DNA from: a virus
Lineage: Duplodnaviria; Heunggongvirae; Uroviricota; Caudoviricetes
Length of the DNA stretch: 11,178 nucleotides
Direction: 5' to 3' (one strand)
IMG/VR virus record: IMGVR_UViG_2671180710_000027
Positions 2,957-9,906 of this stretch are shown here, piece by piece (position 1 is the stretch's first letter; every line of letters starts with the position of its first letter). The notes under the pieces were generated by a model. It did not search any database. It had not been told where the DNA came from and saw nothing but the letters and a program-made list of their open reading frames with translations. The translations under genes and the position numbers were made by a program.

Positions 2957-3247
2957 TTATCTGGTGTGGTCGTAGTTCTGCCGTAGTCGTTCACCCTCAG
3001 CGCAATGACGCGGTTTTTTAACGCCGCTGGTAGCACAATGCGGGCAGGTCATGACGTGGCTGATATACGCATCACGGGCAGCCAGCCACGCCGCAGACGG
3101 GGCGCACATATCCGCCAGCGTCTGGCCGTTGCTGGTGGTGTTGTCTTCCGGCCATGTTTCGGACTGGTGCGCTTCCTGTAAATCCGGTGCAGGTAATGCC
3201 CGGATAAACTCACACAATGCATCCGGCAGGCTGAATAACTTATGCAT
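2957..3247 (-). CDS. Hypothetical small protein with Cys/His cluster (possible mosaic ORF)
   Basis: 96-aa ORF with ATG at 3245-3247 and no clear ribosome-binding site. Contains CPHC...HC. It carries an in-frame 34-bp segment (3101-3134) nearly identical to part of the helicase gene (4481-4514). Confidence 0.35.
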   Translation of the reverse strand: MHKLFSLPDALCEFIRALPAPDLQEAHQSETWPEDNTTSNGQTLADMCAPSAAWLAARDAYISHVMTCPHCATSGVKKPRHCAEGERLRQNYDHTR

Positions 3248-3670
3248 AAATCTGATGTTCTGAATCGCTGAAAACGTGCGTTTTATGGTGTTTTTTCGTG
3301 ATTTCTGCGTGTTCTGATGTGCTCATTTCGCTGTATCCCTTGTGTGGCGCGGGCTGCGCGTGTGTTTCGGTGTTCTTTTTTGCCGCCAGAAAACGGTAAT
3401 CAGGCATATAAACACGGCTGTAAGCCGCGCCGCGTCTGGCTTCGCGTGATTTTGTGCGCTAAAAAGTGCATTTTTGCCCTTAAAAAGCGTTATTCGTGAT
3501 TCACTGGTAAATGCTCCACATGCCGCGCCATTGCTGGGCTTTTCGCTATTCTGTGTGGTTTTGCTGTTTAACCCGTTTTGCACACTGAAATTGCCTTGCA
3601 TCCAGCGCCACGTAAGGGATTTCCGGGTTTTTATGGTGCGTTTTTTGCCGTGCGTAATATTGTGCAAGTT

Positions 3671-3913
3671 GGTGGGACTGGTGGGAACTGTGGGAACCGC
3701 CTAGAACCACGCGGCTTTCAGTGGTTCCCACCAGTTCCCACGGTGGCTTTTTGTGGGAACCGTGGCGGTTATTTTTTGTTCTCTGTGGTTCCCACCAGTT
3801 CCCGCAGAGTTCCCACTCAAAAACGAACAATAATCATACTGGTGATTTTATTATTTACTGATTTATATATGTTTTATTTTTACGGTTCCCACAGTTCCCA
3901 CCAGTCCCACCAC
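3671..3913. repeat. Iteron cluster with AT-rich core: candidate origin of replication (P4 ori/crr-like)
   Basis: About 11 copies of the octamer GTGGGAAC / GTTCCCAC in both orientations (3671-3698, 3724-3741, 3752-3761, 3789-3816, 3885-3910). They flank an AT-rich stretch at 3817-3884 and lie immediately downstream of the helicase gene. Confidence 0.65.
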
Positions 3914-3946
3914 TTTTTCAGTTTTTAAAAACGCAATTTTTGTTAA

Positions 3947-5785: not shown

Positions 5786-6809
5786 GCTCCATTTCCCATA
5801 GCATCAAATCGTTAAAGTCGGAAAGGTCTGGTGATGCACCGGGCGGCCATTCCGGGAATGTGACGTAACATCCGGCCAGCAATGCGGCTTCGTTGGCTGC
5901 TCTGGAACCGGGGTTGCCTTTTGATGCCCGGTCATCATCCCCGGCGATAACGAGAGATATGCGCGAGCCGTATCGTTCACGCAGCGCCATAGCCACATGT
6001 TTAAGGTTTCCCGCATTCATGGCACACACCACGGCCATGACGTTCCAGTACTGGAGAAGGGCGGCCCCGGTGGCCCACCCCTCACACACGTAAACGTCAT
6101 GTTCCGGCGCTTCCGGGGCCATCAGGTCAAAGCTCCCCATAACATGGAAAGCCCCCTGCACCTGACCATCACGGAGAAACATTTTTCGACCGTCCGGGCT
6201 GATAATCTGCACGTTCACCACTTCGCCGCATACGTTGTACAGCGGGACAAGCAAATCATTACCCGACTGATACAGATTGCCGGGCTGTAGCCGTTTTTTC
6301 ATGAGATAGGGATGAGAAGGGGTTGCCACCTCCGCCCGGCCAAGCAACTCAAAGGCCCGGCAGGCGGTCAGTTTCTGGCGCTGGTGGCGTTGTTGCTGCT
6401 CCCGCTGGCGGAGTCTGCCCGCCTCCTGTTCTGCGGCCTGTACCCGCACCCGTTGCGCCTCCCGTTGTTCGCGGGTCATTACATCAGGTTTGCCCAGTGC
6501 GGGCAGGCACAGCCCCAGCCTGTCCGCCACAATACGGGCGGCATCAGTCTGACGCACATTCCACAAATAAGCCCCCAGCGCCACAAGGTCGCCGCCGCTG
6601 TCCCCGGTGGCGAAGTCGTGCCAGCATCCGTCCACCAGCGAGACGAAAAAACTGCCCGCGTGACGGTCTGCACGTGTGGGGTTACGGCACACCCATTCAG
6701 TGGCCTGCCGTTTACCTTCGGGCAGCCATTCAGGAACAAGGATTTCCGCATGTTGTGCCGCCACTGCGGCAACGCTGCGGATTGCGTTAATCGTGGCTAT
6801 GTCACGCAT
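5766..6809 (-). CDS. TOPRIM-domain DNA primase (P4 alpha N-terminal-like)
   Basis: TOPRIM motifs VYVCEGWATG and LVIAGDDD. Preferred start is the ATG at 6807-6809 (GGGAGGG upstream, MRDIATINAIR...), not the TTG at 6885-6887 used by the ORF track. Confidence 0.85.
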   Translation of the reverse strand: MRDIATINAIRSVAAVAAQHAEILVPEWLPEGKRQATEWVCRNPTRADRHAGSFFVSLVDGCWHDFATGDSGGDLVALGAYLWNVRQTDAARIVADRLGLCLPALGKPDVMTREQREAQRVRVQAAEQEAGRLRQREQQQRHQRQKLTACRAFELLGRAEVATPSHPYLMKKRLQPGNLYQSGNDLLVPLYNVCGEVVNVQIISPDGRKMFLRDGQVQGAFHVMGSFDLMAPEAPEHDVYVCEGWATGAALLQYWNVMAVVCAMNAGNLKHVAMALRERYGSRISLVIAGDDDRASKGNPGSRAANEAALLAGCYVTFPEWPPGASPDLSDFNDLMLWEMEHDPDNH

Positions 6810-7116
6810 GTTGCCCGCCCTCCCTGATTTCCCCGGTGCGGCAGCGCCAGTTATACGCCTCCACAACCTCACTGAATCCGGCCACAAGTTCAGCCGTAAC
6901 AGCGATGGAATCGCCCAGGCTGCGTAGTTCGCCCATGCTGGGGTCGAGATTGTCGCCCATGCCGGAAAGCAGGCGGCCTGTGCTAATCAGCCCTTCAAGC
7001 AGTTTGCGGGCGCAGTAATCCGCATCATCAAACAGGGCGCGGGCTTCCTGTGCGTCTGCGTTTTTGATGGCCGCAACCAGTAGTTCAGGTATCCGGGTGT
7101 TATACATATCACACAT
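6802..7116 (-). CDS. Hypothetical acidic protein (104 aa)
   Basis: ATG at 7114-7116 overlaps the upstream stop in an ATGTGTGA junction, and its own stop overlaps the primase start in ATGCGTGA. No motif recognised. Confidence 0.55.
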   Translation of the reverse strand: MCDMYNTRIPELLVAAIKNADAQEARALFDDADYCARKLLEGLISTGRLLSGMGDNLDPSMGELRSLGDSIAVTAELVAGFSEVVEAYNWRCRTGEIREGGQHA

Positions 7117-7405
7117 GGCTTACCTCCCCGGCCTGCTGGTCGTAACACTCCATCAGTTCGGCCATACAGCCAATGAGGGCAGGGGCTGTCTGTAGAAATC
7201 CGGCTAATTGGCAGATCTCGTCTCTGGAATAGGTGATGGGGTTTTCGCGTAACTGGCTTCCCTCCAGTGCCTTACCAACAAAGGCAATCCCCGCCAGTAA
7301 ATTCACTCTGTGCCAGTCGGCATCAACGCGCAGAATCCAGTGGCTTTCTTCGTCCGGCATACTGCTCATGGCGGCTTTCATTGACTCACGCAGACAATCA
7401 CGCAT
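7109..7405 (-). CDS. Hypothetical acidic protein (98 aa from ATG 7403-7405)
   Basis: The ORF-track start at 7435 is a TTG. The ATG at 7403-7405 sits in an ATGCGTGA overlap with the upstream stop and has GGGGG 6 nt upstream. Confidence 0.5.
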   Translation of the reverse strand: MRDCLRESMKAAMSSMPDEESHWILRVDADWHRVNLLAGIAFVGKALEGSQLRENPITYSRDEICQLAGFLQTAPALIGCMAELMECYDQQAGEVSHV

Positions 7406-7862
7406 GGCGCGCCCCCTGACGAATACGGGCGACAAAAATCATATGCGCGTGCGGTAGCTGCGCGCGTGCTTCGCGTTCTGTTGCCGCCGTGACGGTAAAG
7501 AGCGAGGTTTGTTTTTCCTGGCACTGCATAAAGCGCCAGACAAAGTAAGGGCGTGCGAATACAGCCATGTGAAAGGCTCCTATGTTTGAGGTAAGGAGTC
7601 TCGCTACTACGCTGCTAAACGGGGTGGCGAGACGTAACGGGGTTAGCAGACTGGCAACATAGAAACCAGCGAGCGCAAAGGCTCCCCCGTCACGCCCCGC
7701 CATAATGCGGGTATGGGTAGGTTTACGGACACAAAAAAACCGCATATCGGAATGTAAGCGGCTGTCCGCTATGTTATTCAGGCTGCTAAACCCGGTCACC
7801 ATGTGGGTGACTCCGGCATCATACAGCCCGAAAGAAGAGGCGATCAACATGTTTTTAAGCAT
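7398..7862 (-). CDS. Ash/Icd-like family protein (long form 154 aa; possible short form 7398-7568)
   Basis: C-terminal 56 aa (MAVFARPYFVWRFMQ...HMIFVARIRQGARHA) is paralogous to the Icd-like protein upstream. The long start at 7860-7862 overlaps the upstream stop (ATGCTTAA). An internal ATG at 7566-7568 has GGAG 8 nt upstream, so the true start is ambiguous. Confidence 0.5.
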   Translation of the reverse strand: MLKNMLIASSFGLYDAGVTHMVTGFSSLNNIADSRLHSDMRFFCVRKPTHTRIMAGRDGGAFALAGFYVASLLTPLRLATPFSSVVARLLTSNIGAFHMAVFARPYFVWRFMQCQEKQTSLFTVTAATEREARAQLPHAHMIFVARIRQGARHA

Positions 7863-8052
7863 GGCTCACCCCCTGAGCCGGAACGCGGCCAGCAAAAAGC
7901 AACACAAAATCACGCGCCAGCATACGGCGGGCGGTTGTTTCGTCGGGTGCGTTGACGGATTCGCGGTGTGGGCGGTCGTTCAGATCGGAACGGCGAACGG
8001 CCAGAAAGTGAAAGGTAAATTCAGGGTGTAACGGGGTTGGGGTCGTAGCCAT
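7855..8052 (-). CDS. Host cell division inhibitor Icd-like small protein (65 aa)
   Basis: MATTPTPLHPEFTFHFLAVRRSD...ARRMLARDFVLLFAGRVP matches the recalled Icd-like pattern. The ATG at 8050-8052 has AGGAGG 8 nt upstream. The 201-aa ORF-track version adds a Pro/Gly/Arg-rich N-terminal extension that I consider non-coding. Confidence 0.6.
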   Translation of the reverse strand: MATTPTPLHPEFTFHFLAVRRSDLNDRPHRESVNAPDETTARRMLARDFVLLFAGRVPAQGVSHA

Positions 8053-8481
8053 TCTGGCAGCCTCCTTTTGCAAATTTAAGGAGTCACCGCCTGAGTTTCC
8101 ACGCTCATAAGGGGCGGTGACGCTGGCGGGGGTGGAAATACCGGCGCAAAAGGAAACCGGCCAGCCTTTCGGCTGCCCCACCAGCGCCACCATAGATACA
8201 GTGCGGGCCTTGCCGCTGTTCATGGTTGCGCGATGGCACGACACAAAAAAAGACGCTGGGCGCGTCTGTGTCGCCTTTTGCTCATTAAACGGGTTTCCAC
8301 GCCCGGCTGGTGGATTTACACCAGCCGGGGAAATATAACGCCCACCAGCGATGGCAGGCAAGCAATATTTGCGGTTGCCGCCCATTCTGTGGGGCGTGTG
8401 GTGGTTGTTTTGGGCGTGAGAACGCCCCGGCCCTGTTGCGGGCCTTTCTGGCATTTTCATGATTAAAATTCTCTGACGGGG

Positions 8482-8688
8482 TTAATTGCGCGTGCTGGTC
8501 GTGCCTTTGCGGTCAGCGAGCCACTGGCGGATAGCGGAAACATCAAAGCGGCTTACGCCATCGCCCAGCTTATCCGGGCTGGGGAATTTACCTTTTTTAA
8601 CCCAGTTCCATAGCGTCGATTCGCTAATCTGAAAATGGTTTATCACCTGTGCCGGGCGCATATAGCCGGATTTGGGTAAGGTATCCAT
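8482..8688 (-). CDS. alpA: AlpA-family phage regulatory / excisionase-like HTH protein
   Basis: 68-aa ORF with an HTH (MRPAQVINHFQISESTLWNWVKKGKFPSP) followed by RFDVSAIRQWL, typical of AlpA/Xis-type proteins. AGAGG lies 9 nt upstream. Confidence 0.8.
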   Translation of the reverse strand: MDTLPKSGYMRPAQVINHFQISESTLWNWVKKGKFPSPDKLGDGVSRFDVSAIRQWLADRKGTTSTRN

Positions 8689-8857: not shown

Positions 8858-9811
8858 TTATCTTTTTGCTTTTGCGTTTCCGCCCAAAATTTTCCATTCA
8901 TTGGGTAAGCGTCTGGCATCAGATAATATTTTTGCTATTCGTCCCGCGTCAGGTGTTGGGGTGGGATTGCCATCCCAGAACAGATAACCGTGTTTCTCTA
9001 TGGCTTCGGCATGTGATTTAAGTGTCTTGCCAACATCTTTAGGGAAGTGATACGCCACGTACAGGGCAGCCGCGAGAACCTTTTCACGTTCCAGCGCGAA
9101 TCGCTCCACACCGCCGTGTATATCATGCTTTTCCTGATTCCTGTCATCTGTCGGTTGTTCTGTGCGCTGGTAGCCGGGCCTTTGTGCAAGTATTTTTTGC
9201 ATGACCATCATTTCTGAATCGGTAATGCGCAAATTCTTTTTTTCCGGGGCGTTTATCCGGCGTGAGCCGCCACGTGGTGTAAAGGTTGCTGTAACTTTGG
9301 ACAGTGAAGGGGTATCGGTGTACGGTTTTAATGTGAATGTGTCCTGTGCGTGAACGCGCGAGAACTCGGCGTAAGGTACAGTCCATAAGCCATACAGGAG
9401 AACATCCGATACAACCATAAGTTTCCCGTCATGTACCTGCGCGTCACTATGGTTGCTGTCAAAGTAGAACCCGGATTGTGAGTATTGATGGTAAACATTT
9501 CTCCAAATCAATATTGATTCAGGTTCGTTGTCATTGGGGAAAAGCCTGAGTTTCTCCCCTTCTTCCGGTTGTAGTAATTCAGGTGGGAAATAATCGTTTG
9601 TTGCTGGCGCTGAAATACTGGCAATGTTCCACGGCTTGGCCGGATATCCCCACTTGTCGTAATCCGTGTAGCTTTGGCGGTTTATGGAACTTTCCGGGCC
9701 GAAATCAAGTGCGATTTTTATTGTCCCTTTAGCCCATTCAGTCAGTATTTTTTTTTGAGTACACCCCAGTATGCTGGCGGCTGTATCAATAGGGTATGTG
9801 TTTTCATACAT
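8858..9811 (-). CDS. Hypothetical protein (317 aa), AT-rich cargo gene in the integrase-alpA slot
   Basis: Long uninterrupted ORF with ATG at 9809-9811. Composition is markedly more AT-rich than its neighbours. The N-terminus has an HTH-like stretch (IDTAASILGCTQKKILTEWAKG). No catalytic motif recognised. Confidence 0.6.
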   Translation of the reverse strand: MYENTYPIDTAASILGCTQKKILTEWAKGTIKIALDFGPESSINRQSYTDYDKWGYPAKPWNIASISAPATNDYFPPELLQPEEGEKLRLFPNDNEPESILIWRNVYHQYSQSGFYFDSNHSDAQVHDGKLMVVSDVLLYGLWTVPYAEFSRVHAQDTFTLKPYTDTPSLSKVTATFTPRGGSRRINAPEKKNLRITDSEMMVMQKILAQRPGYQRTEQPTDDRNQEKHDIHGGVERFALEREKVLAAALYVAYHFPKDVGKTLKSHAEAIEKHGYLFWDGNPTPTPDAGRIAKILSDARRLPNEWKILGGNAKAKR

Positions 9812-9906
9812 GGTTTACGTTACCTTTGACGCTACCTTAAAAATAAACCGGGGCAGGCGGTAAGGTTTCCCGCTTTTCGCGCCGTCGCGCTATCCCCGGT
9901 ATGTTT

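Follow-up and report, generated by a model that had tools for sequence, protein, structure and literature searches.

The question raised by this locus is why consecutive genes should run into one another by the same eight nucleotides. The locus lies in an 11,178-nt stretch of DNA (IMG/VR record IMGVR_UViG_2671180710_000027, from a virus of the Caudoviricetes; hereafter, the window), in which a chain of minus-strand genes leads from an AlpA-like regulator to a primase and a helicase. A preliminary description, made from the sequence of the window alone, had taken the overlaps as the mark of a coupled operon whose products are made in fixed ratio with the replication proteins. The analysis described here indicates that the region is probably the early or 'left' operon of a P4-related satellite island resembling the phage-inducible chromosomal islands (PICIs), in which the octamers would act as an RNA-gated ribosome relay that makes expression of the replication module all-or-none. 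The system is of a known kind, the RNA immunity of P4 and P1, with two notable variations, namely tandem cassettes of different specificity and a new pair of small, probably paralogous proteins.

The four octamers and the 20-nt overlap between the primase and helicase genes were found on the minus strand exactly where the preliminary description had placed them (Table 1). Each octamer junction is a −8 pair (NTGNNTGA), in which the start codon lies 5 nt before the preceding stop codon, and a G-rich Shine-Dalgarno (SD)-like run lies inside the upstream gene, 5–9 nt upstream of the junction ATG. The window contains 23 ATGnnTRR octamers on both strands, six of which join two open reading frames (ORFs) of at least 50 aa; four of these six tile head to tail in the operon. 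Random sequences generated by a first-order Markov model with the dinucleotide statistics of the window contained a mean of 0.32 and a maximum of 3 such ORF-joining octamers. The run of octamers was confirmed not to be a product of chance. A caveat applies to junction 1, which is flanked by the long frames annotated by PGAP (the same long ORFs as those used in the preliminary description); the 5' parts of these frames overlie RNA genes and are not simple protein genes. Treatment of junction 1 as spurious was considered and rejected; the octamer and the open frame behind it are kept in every tandem locus. Related loci are designated by L numbers, L001 being the genome with an identical island and L021 phage D6. 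A fifth −8 octamer (ATGCATAA, 3240-3247, minus strand) was found at the start of ORF96 (2957-3247). Its upstream partner is an unannotated 55-aa ORF (3240-3407), and L002, L013, and L014 have the octamer unchanged in unchanged surroundings.

The two genes at the upstream end of the octamer run had been counted as ordinary protein genes, but this view did not survive the examination of their sequences. Both are composites, each holding a promoter-like site, an isrK/seqA-like element, and a C4/CI-type RNA, and only their last 56–65 codons belong to the Icd/Kil type. The four RNA elements (two isrK/c4-a1b1 matches and two C4 matches; Rfam gathering scores, 45 for C4 and 50 for isrK) all lie inside the 5' parts. 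The NCBIfam model phage_ICD_like (NF033153; cut-off, 25 bits) matches only residues 148–194 of frame 1 and 107–149 of frame 2, i.e., the last ~47 residues of each. Internal ATGs at 8052, with the ribosome-binding site (RBS) AAAAGGAGG, and at 7568, with the RBS GGAG, open ORFs of 65 and 56 aa, respectively. In both cassettes, an Icd-family ORF directly follows the C4 RNA, as in P1 immI; this short ORF has its RBS at the downstream target and forms the 3' end of a longer open frame, as Kil does within P4 eta. Each cassette consists, in order, of a promoter-like site, an isrK/seqA-like leader carrying the targets a1 and b1, an antisense RNA, and the targets a2 and b2 at the SD of the Kil-like ORF. 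The promoter-like sites occupy homologous, conserved spots in the two cassettes. That of cassette 1 aligns with a TTGCCT hexamer of P4 at the position of the internal constitutive promoter PLE, and in an alignment of cassette 2 (A2) the TTG of the −35 and the TAT..T of the −10 sequences are invariant, the flanking bases being different.

The composite structure bears on the original model, in which six ordinary protein genes overlap mainly to keep the small proteins in a fixed ratio to the primase and helicase, as would suit, for example, subunits or loaders of a single replication complex. The operon does feed into the primase, as that model holds, since a Toprim primase gene and a DUF927 helicase gene lie downstream, and the two small genes in the middle of the chain are coding (see below). 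The upstream pair, on the other hand, are not ordinary protein genes, and we consider the model unlikely. Gating by RNA immunity is better supported than a fixed ratio as the purpose of the overlaps, and a fixed stoichiometry would be at most a side effect.

Both RNAs have exact complements of 7–9 nt on either side of themselves, as in P4. Nucleotides 44–52 of RNA 1 (TCCTTTTGC) are exactly complementary to b1 and b2 of cassette 1, and nucleotides 60–66 (TTTCCAC) to a1 and a2. In RNA 2, the loop CTATGTT is complementary to b1 and b2 of cassette 2, and the loop CTGCTAA to a1 and a2. Since these loops differ from those of RNA 1, the cassettes differ in specificity. An 8-nt complement between nucleotides 28–35 of RNA 1 and the leader of kil-like 2 (7578-7571) was dismissed as being at the chance level (~1.4 expected).

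Covariation was examined in 18 C4 copies from 15 loci of E. coli, E. albertii, Klebsiella, Salmonella, and other Enterobacterales assemblies. In all 18 copies, b2 was located 32–39 nt downstream of the RNA, beside the SD of a Kil-like ORF of 56–65 aa, and b1 was present upstream in 17. The RNA loops and both targets co-vary in 17–18 of the copies, which together represent at least 12 b specificities and at least 7 a specificities. In cassette 2, three-way covariation of b1, b', and b2 gave 5 specificities in 6 homologues. The three-way covariation argues strongly, on comparative grounds, for an action of the RNAs at the ribosome-binding sites of the Kil-like ORFs. Of 5,426 complete E. coli genomes, only 6 contained the exact cassette pair of the window, and tandems of other cassette pairs were found in L007, L008, L016, and L017. 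Phage D6 carries, ~470 nt upstream of its principal isrK-C4-icd-ant cassette, another C4-like match of lower score (1329-1408; 40 bits), so that P1-like phages may have tandem C4 copies as well.

The 5' parts of the long frames are kept open, and their amino acid sequences are not conserved. The 143 codons of frame 1 ahead of the kil ATG contain no stop, compared with 5 and 4 stops in the other two frames, and frame 2 is open for 99 codons upstream of the kil-like 2 ATG. An open frame of 99–496 codons precedes the kil ATG in each of the 18 copies, whereas the other two frames contain 3–35 stops over that distance. Variable sites by codon position numbered 22/29/15 in the 5' extension of frame 2, the third positions being the least variable, and 11/14/23 in Kil-like ORF 2. 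Frame 2 stays open in each of its 6 homologues, even in L016 and L017, where a −1/+1 indel pair shifts 30 codons to another frame. Three 1-nt indels, at separate sites between b1 and the RNA, distinguish cassette 1 relatives of the L009/L013 type from the window, and PGAP flags several copies, including those of L016 and L017, as frameshifted or partial. Openness in all copies, together with the lack of conservation of sequence and frame, points to selection for a translatable frame rather than for a protein sequence, and fits the precedent of P4 eta. Junction 1 would then most likely hand ribosomes into a frame whose translation, and not its product, matters.

These data also bear on a reading in which the long frames encode functional Ash/Eta-type proteins (201 and 154 aa) of the 'Bro network', so that the junction at 7855-7862 links real proteins and the RNA-family matches are secondary. 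Such a reading would agree with the Pfam Phage_ASH match (E = 9.5e-27), with the frames being open in 18 of 18 copies, and with the statement in one report that P4 Eta is translated from the late promoter (PMC10111431). However, the Phage_ASH match (residues 42–148 of the 201-aa frame; window 8017-8337, minus strand) falls on the isrK/a1b1 element and the C4 RNA and takes in no more than the first 12 codons of Kil-like ORF 1. The low variability of third codon positions in the extension, the 30 codons read in another frame, the three 1-nt indels, and the frameshifted or partial PGAP calls likewise speak against functional proteins, and we regard this reading as quite unlikely. Because the Phage_ASH match covers RNA elements, the 'Ash protein family' and the long 'Icd-like' coding sequences (CDSs) of RefSeq look largely like translations of these elements.

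A census of the annotated junctions between alpA and the replicase gene was made in 13 loci, P4 included (n = 63). The −8 junctions accounted for 30 of the 63, and −4 junctions for only 3. Among prokaryotic gene overlaps, −4 (~45%) and −1 (~15%) are the prevailing classes, and −8 forms a smaller, enriched one (PMC3887535, PMC12548453); one of these reports treats the −8 spacing as a recognised enriched coupling motif (PMC12548453). ATGnnTRA with a preceding SD closes all of the 18 Kil-like ORFs examined, regardless of what comes next (a second cassette, ORF98, ORF104, or an unrelated ORF of 60–72 aa). Junction 1 is kept in the other tandem loci (L007, L008, L016, and L017). The 20-nt primase/helicase overlap is identical in L002, L005, L013, and L014, and a 17-nt form is found in L004 and L011. 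The octamers have also left imprints in the proteins: M1 and D3 do not vary in the ORF104 family, and the Kil-like ORFs, ORF98, and ORF104 all finish with 'H-A/V-stop'. The junction ATGs, on whose conservation the preliminary description had made its proposal depend, are conserved in the relatives.

It is very unlikely that the octamers are a passive legacy, i.e., joints left by duplication and short-homology cassette exchange at which each gene initiates independently at its own SD without coupling: each junction does have its own SD, ORF98 is an exact presence/absence cassette between two copies of the junction motif GGrGGt..GcCATGnGTGA, and ORF98 and ORF104, like the two cassettes, appear to be paralogues, so that the joints could be copies, but the joint is kept in 18 of 18 Kil-like ORFs of E. 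coli, Salmonella, Klebsiella, Citrobacter, and P4 despite divergence of the neighbouring codons, the −8 class, normally a minority compared with −4 and −1 (PMC3887535, PMC12548453), here outnumbers −4 by 30 to 3, and in the homologous systems of P4 and Gifsy-1 a dependence of downstream expression on upstream translation was shown (PMC10111431, PMC4825925). Such a legacy and a ribosome relay are not mutually exclusive.

In the RNA-gated relay, the constitutive promoter-like site of each cassette would produce a leader transcript that is processed into RNAs. In the quiescent state, the processed RNA would pair with a2 and b2 and block translation of the Kil-like ORF. Each downstream cistron starts 5 nt before the previous stop, and thus no ribosome would be handed on; because every cistron begins inside the previous one, a block of initiation at the head should strip the whole transcript of ribosomes. 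The naked transcript would be terminated through Rho polarity, and ORF98, ORF104, the primase, and the helicase would stay off together as a result of the blocked hand-on. Upon induction, transcripts starting further upstream, at alpA, would be translated straight through the long frames. Translation of these frames would shield the RNA targets and prevent termination, and the −8 junctions would then pass ribosomes from frame to frame up to the helicase. The alpA stop is located 21 nt before the ATG of long frame 1 in the window, and 18–21 nt before it in 6 loci.

Several points weigh against this relay. The anatomy, homology, and covariation come from the present analysis, and the rest of the model, i.e., the promoters, RNA processing, Rho dependence, and coupling, was taken over by analogy with P4, P1, and Gifsy-1 isrK. 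The number of promoter-like matches in the region equals the chance expectation, and only their conserved position carries weight. The isrK and c4-a1b1 matches of cassette 2 are below the Rfam gathering scores. The junction from ORF104 to the replicase gene varies among the relatives (−8, −4, −11, or a 73-nt gap) and is therefore not always an overlap; the gap occurs in L007 and L008, where the replicase is DUF4222 + RepA. On transcripts from cassette 1, ribosome re-initiation at 7862 would lead to cassette 2 being bypassed. In the identical genome, finally, PerC is frameshifted and SSB is truncated (L001 2304-2838, window about 2003-2537); the island looks partly decayed, and the circuit may no longer be in use.

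Table 1. Features of the minus-strand gene chain and its RNA elements, in order of transcription. Positions refer to the window.
Feature	Position	Strand	Remarks
AlpA/Vis-like helix-turn-helix (HTH) regulator	8482..8688	−	first gene of chain; Pfam HTH_17, Phage_AlpA
Long open frame 1, Eta-like, 201 codons	7855..8460	−	holds cassette 1; ends as Kil/Icd-like ORF 1
Sigma-70-like promoter match, cassette 1	8332..8361	−	TTGCCT-18-TATATT; consensus match only
isrK/seqA-like element, cassette 1	8246..8338	−	Rfam isrK 62.6 bits, c4-a1b1 40.2 bits
Upstream targets, cassette 1	a1 8300-8294, b1 8281-8274	−	
Terminator hairpin followed by T7, cassette 1	8267-8251	−	terminator scan
C4/CI-type antisense RNA 1, 88 nt	8110..8197	−	Rfam C4 82.3 bits, full length
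Downstream targets of RNA 1	8056..8102	−	a2 8102-8096, b2 8071-8063; b2 overlaps SD AAAAGGAGG of kil-like 1
Kil/Icd-like ORF 1, 65 aa	7855..8052	−	nested at end of frame 1; phage_ICD_like 70.5 bits
Junction 1, ATGCTTAA	7862-7855	−	kil-like 1 stop and long frame 2 start
Long open frame 2, Eta-like, 154 codons	7398..7862	−	holds cassette 2
Sigma-70-like promoter match, cassette 2	7818..7847	−	TTGATC-18-TATGAT; consensus match
isrK/seqA-like element, cassette 2	7733..7824	−	isrK 36.6 bits, c4-a1b1 29.2 bits; a1 7789-7783, b1 7775-7769
C4/CI-type antisense RNA 2, 88 nt	7620..7707	−	Rfam C4 74 bits, full length
Downstream targets of RNA 2	7580..7618	−	a2 7618-7612, b2 7586-7580; b2 abuts SD GGAG of kil-like 2
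Kil/Icd-like ORF 2, 56 aa	7398..7568	−	phage_ICD_like 52.1 bits; PHROG 1426, 1743
Junction 2, ATGCGTGA	7405-7398	−	kil-like 2 to ORF98
ORF98, acidic, helical	7109..7405	−	pI (isoelectric point) 4.73, net charge −7; present/absent cassette among relatives
Junction 3, ATGTGTGA	7116-7109	−	ORF98 to ORF104
ORF104, acidic, three-helix	6802..7116	−	pI 4.55, net charge −7; Enterobacterales only
Junction 4, ATGCGTGA	6809-6802	−	ORF104 to primase
Toprim-domain primase, 347 aa	5766..6809	−	Pfam Toprim_3; PHROG 2249 DNA primase, E = 4e-50
Primase stop/helicase start overlap, 20 nt, ATGACCCGGACAACCACTAA	5785-5766	−	GGAG 3 nt before ATG
DUF927 replicative helicase, 612 aa	3947..5785	−	Pfam DUF927 E = 7e-83; NCBIfam Cch-type helicase; PHROG 1139

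The proposal that the small ORFs are real was borne out, and ORF98 and ORF104 are conserved coding genes. Homologues of ORF98 with 32–34% identity are found at the corresponding place in loci of Citrobacter and Tenebrionibacter (E = 1e-16; blastp against neighbouring loci), and a word-based homologue search with ORF98 returned 3 clusters only. The insertion or deletion of ORF98 is bounded exactly by the two motif copies mentioned above. The ORF104 family comprises 57 clusters at 63–98% identity, with only 8 representatives among 1.84 billion proteins; a profile scan of genome contigs with ORF104 gave 2 loci only, and further loci were gathered from E. coli genomes and from contigs encoding homologues. 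Variable sites of ORF104 by codon position numbered 41/42/86, a coding signature. ORF98 showed a weak but reproducible relation to the ORF104 family (hhalign, E = 7.6e-4; blastp, E = 4e-6 to the L007 member), and the two are probably paralogues. AlphaFold 2 gave a confident three-helix model for ORF104 (pLDDT 87), and the ORF98 model was unusable (pLDDT 42.6). In the Logan assemblies, a 161-aa protein (P0058; 90 member sequences) was observed in which a Kil-like ORF continues in frame into ORF98 across the junction, apparently as a natural variant produced by a frameshift at the octamer.

Residues 41–62 of ORF104 (window 6931-6996), in the region of the loop from helix 2 to helix 3, form a hypervariable patch. 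Between the window and L002, 15 nonsynonymous and 5 synonymous codon changes were counted over the whole ORF, and the amino acid changes were concentrated in the patch. This distribution suggests recombination or diversifying selection.

The two products are acidic, as had been noted, although mildly so. The suggestion that they might be DNA mimics or anti-defence factors of the Ocr or ArdA type was not upheld; the net charge is only −7, and neither a specific fold match nor a PADLOC match was obtained. Neither protein matched a family in Pfam, NCBIfam, or PHROGs, a PDB sequence, or a PADLOC defence system, and searches of Pfam, NCBIfam, and PHROGs revealed no match to the Ant, AntA, KilA, or Bro domains. 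Neither protein resembled epsilon, orf151, or orf106 of P4 (hhalign probability, <1%); for homology to epsilon, blastp gave nothing and the hhalign probability was 0.3%, and the hhalign comparisons of ORF104 with epsilon and orf106 were negative. A role in dealing with the helper is a reasonable guess by analogy, because the two genes stand at the position of epsilon, the helper-derepression protein of P4, and of Ant in P1.

The window matches, with 100% identity, an island of E. coli 2012EL-2448 located between yicC and dinD. The annotated order in this island is integrase, hypothetical protein, HTH protein (AlpA-like), two 'Icd-like' CDSs, two hypothetical proteins, toprim, DUF927, truncated SSB, frameshifted PerC, and Mor. 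The yicC-side insertion site is shared by L005, L009, L013, and L015. The island combines an integrase, AlpA, and a primase/helicase replicon in ~10 kb at a fixed chromosomal site, which are features of a PICI/P4-like satellite. No sid, delta, or psu gene was annotated in the L001 island, and no dedicated search for them was made.

Other elements were found on both sides of the operon. Between the integrase gene and a 317-aa ORF, an int-alpA RNA was detected at 9835-9900 on the minus strand (Rfam RF02996, 64 bits; gathering score, 35.8), and this RNA is also present in L003, L004, L011, and L013. The 317-aa ORF itself (8858-9811, minus strand) lies between the integrase gene and alpA; it had no match in Pfam, NCBIfam, PHROGs, or PADLOC, and ORFs of similar size occur at the same place in relatives. 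At least 8 copies of an iteron (GTTCCCAC / GTGGGAAC) are present in both orientations at 3680-3915, in a non-coding stretch of ~700 nt directly 3' of the DUF927 helicase gene, and this stretch is probably the replication origin of the island. A tRNA-like element was located at 1017-1098 on the minus strand (Rfam tRNA, 35 bits); PGAP calls an 82-nt 'tRNA-Tyr' in the identical genome, and ARAGORN found no tRNA in the window.

The overlapping 'hypothetical' and 'Icd-like' genes, annotated as proteins in RefSeq, would on the RNA-gated reading constitute a P4/P1-type RNA-controlled switch in front of satellite replication genes. The Pfam 'Ash' family and the long 'Icd-like' CDS annotations should be used with caution, as they appear largely to translate RNA elements. 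A broader generalization is tentative, and we think it doubtful in its full extent: P4/PICI-type satellites would use the −8 octamer and its SD as a standardised 'docking joint', at which cassettes and effectors can be swapped without breaking the relay; two hetero-specific cassettes would be stacked for dual immunity or as an OR-gate for induction; and ORF98 and ORF104 would be a new paralogous effector family at the epsilon position, possibly engaged in helper derepression or interference, with a hypervariable loop that tracks phage targets. If this is true, the stacked cassettes would confer immunity to two classes of rival satellites or serve as the OR-gate. In addition, at least 12 natural RNA/target specificities combined with a conserved coupling joint could be useful as orthogonal genetic parts.

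Among known elements, the Gram-negative PICIs EcCICFT073, EcCIMP1, and their relatives share with the window the series int, alpA, 'Bro/Ash' zone, primase/helicase, SSB, PerC, and Mor, and C4 and isrK matches in such islands are noted in earlier reports (PMC10111431, PMC11773190). They differ in that packaging or capsid-redirection genes were not recognised in the window, where no dedicated search for these genes was made. The isrK-orf45-anrP region of Gifsy-1 in Salmonella likewise has an isrK-family leader with a terminator. Its upstream ORF is described as conserved in nucleotides and not in amino acids, and translation of this ORF is reported to be needed, by coupling, for that of the downstream anti-repressor (PMC4825925). 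Gifsy-1 differs in its short RNA, which activates translation in trans, and in its AUGA (−4) overlap; the window has a separate C4-type RNA and −8 overlaps.

The immI region of P1 and P7 (c4, icd, and ant) has a C4-family RNA in Rfam and the same logic of a1/b1, a'/b', and a2/b2, with b2 at an icd-type RBS, and its Icd-like ORF (NF033153) is coupled to the next gene, as those of the window would be. The specificity differences between the cassettes of the window lie in the RNA loops, as in the heteroimmunity of P1 and P7. The P1-like phage D6 also contains isrK, C4, and icd; its icd overlaps ant by 1 nt, in contrast to the 8 nt of the window. The genes downstream of the Icd-like ORF also differ, being two small proteins and a replicase in the window instead of Ant-type antirepressors.

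P4-type RNA immunity is characterized by a constitutive promoter, PLE, inside a long frame and upstream of seqA, Rho-dependent termination relieved by translation, and processing of the RNA by RNase P. The left operon of P4 has the same order as the window: a vis/alpA-like gene, CI inside eta/kil, a −8 junction, the next genes, and the replication genes at the 3' end. The P4 record lists ORF88 (Vis/AlpA-like), the cI frame, epsilon, orf151, orf106, and the alpha primase. The 201-codon frame of the window is 44% identical to the 'cI/ash' frame of P4 (tblastn), and its 65-aa ORF is 54% identical over the full length to the 65-aa Kil of P4, at the end of a ~200-codon open frame. The Rfam C4, isrK, and c4-a1b1 models match at the CI RNA and seqA of P4 with scores similar to those of the window (CI, 74.9 bits by the C4 model), and P4 itself has 8-nt overlaps between cI (kil/eta) and epsilon (GTGCGTAA) and between epsilon and orf151 (ATGTTTGA). 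Reports on P4 describe that CI RNA pairs with seqA and seqC, leading to premature transcription termination, that Kil is the 3' part of eta, whose translation from the upstream late promoter prevents termination, that eta is coupled to the alpA homologue, and that the Rfam C4 and isrK models detect relatives of CI and seqA in Gram-negative PICIs (PMC10111431, PMC4825925).

On the other hand, the window has two tandem hetero-specific cassettes where P4 has one, and a separate Toprim primase and DUF927 helicase in place of the fused alpha protein. Where P4 has epsilon, orf151, and orf106, the window has the unrelated ORF98 and ORF104, and epsilon shares with ORF98 only its position as the first gene after kil, with a −8 overlap. 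Only the tandem hetero-specific cassettes and the ORF98/ORF104 family lie beyond the biology of P4, and it is these that bear on the mutual exclusion of satellites and their exploitation of helper phages.

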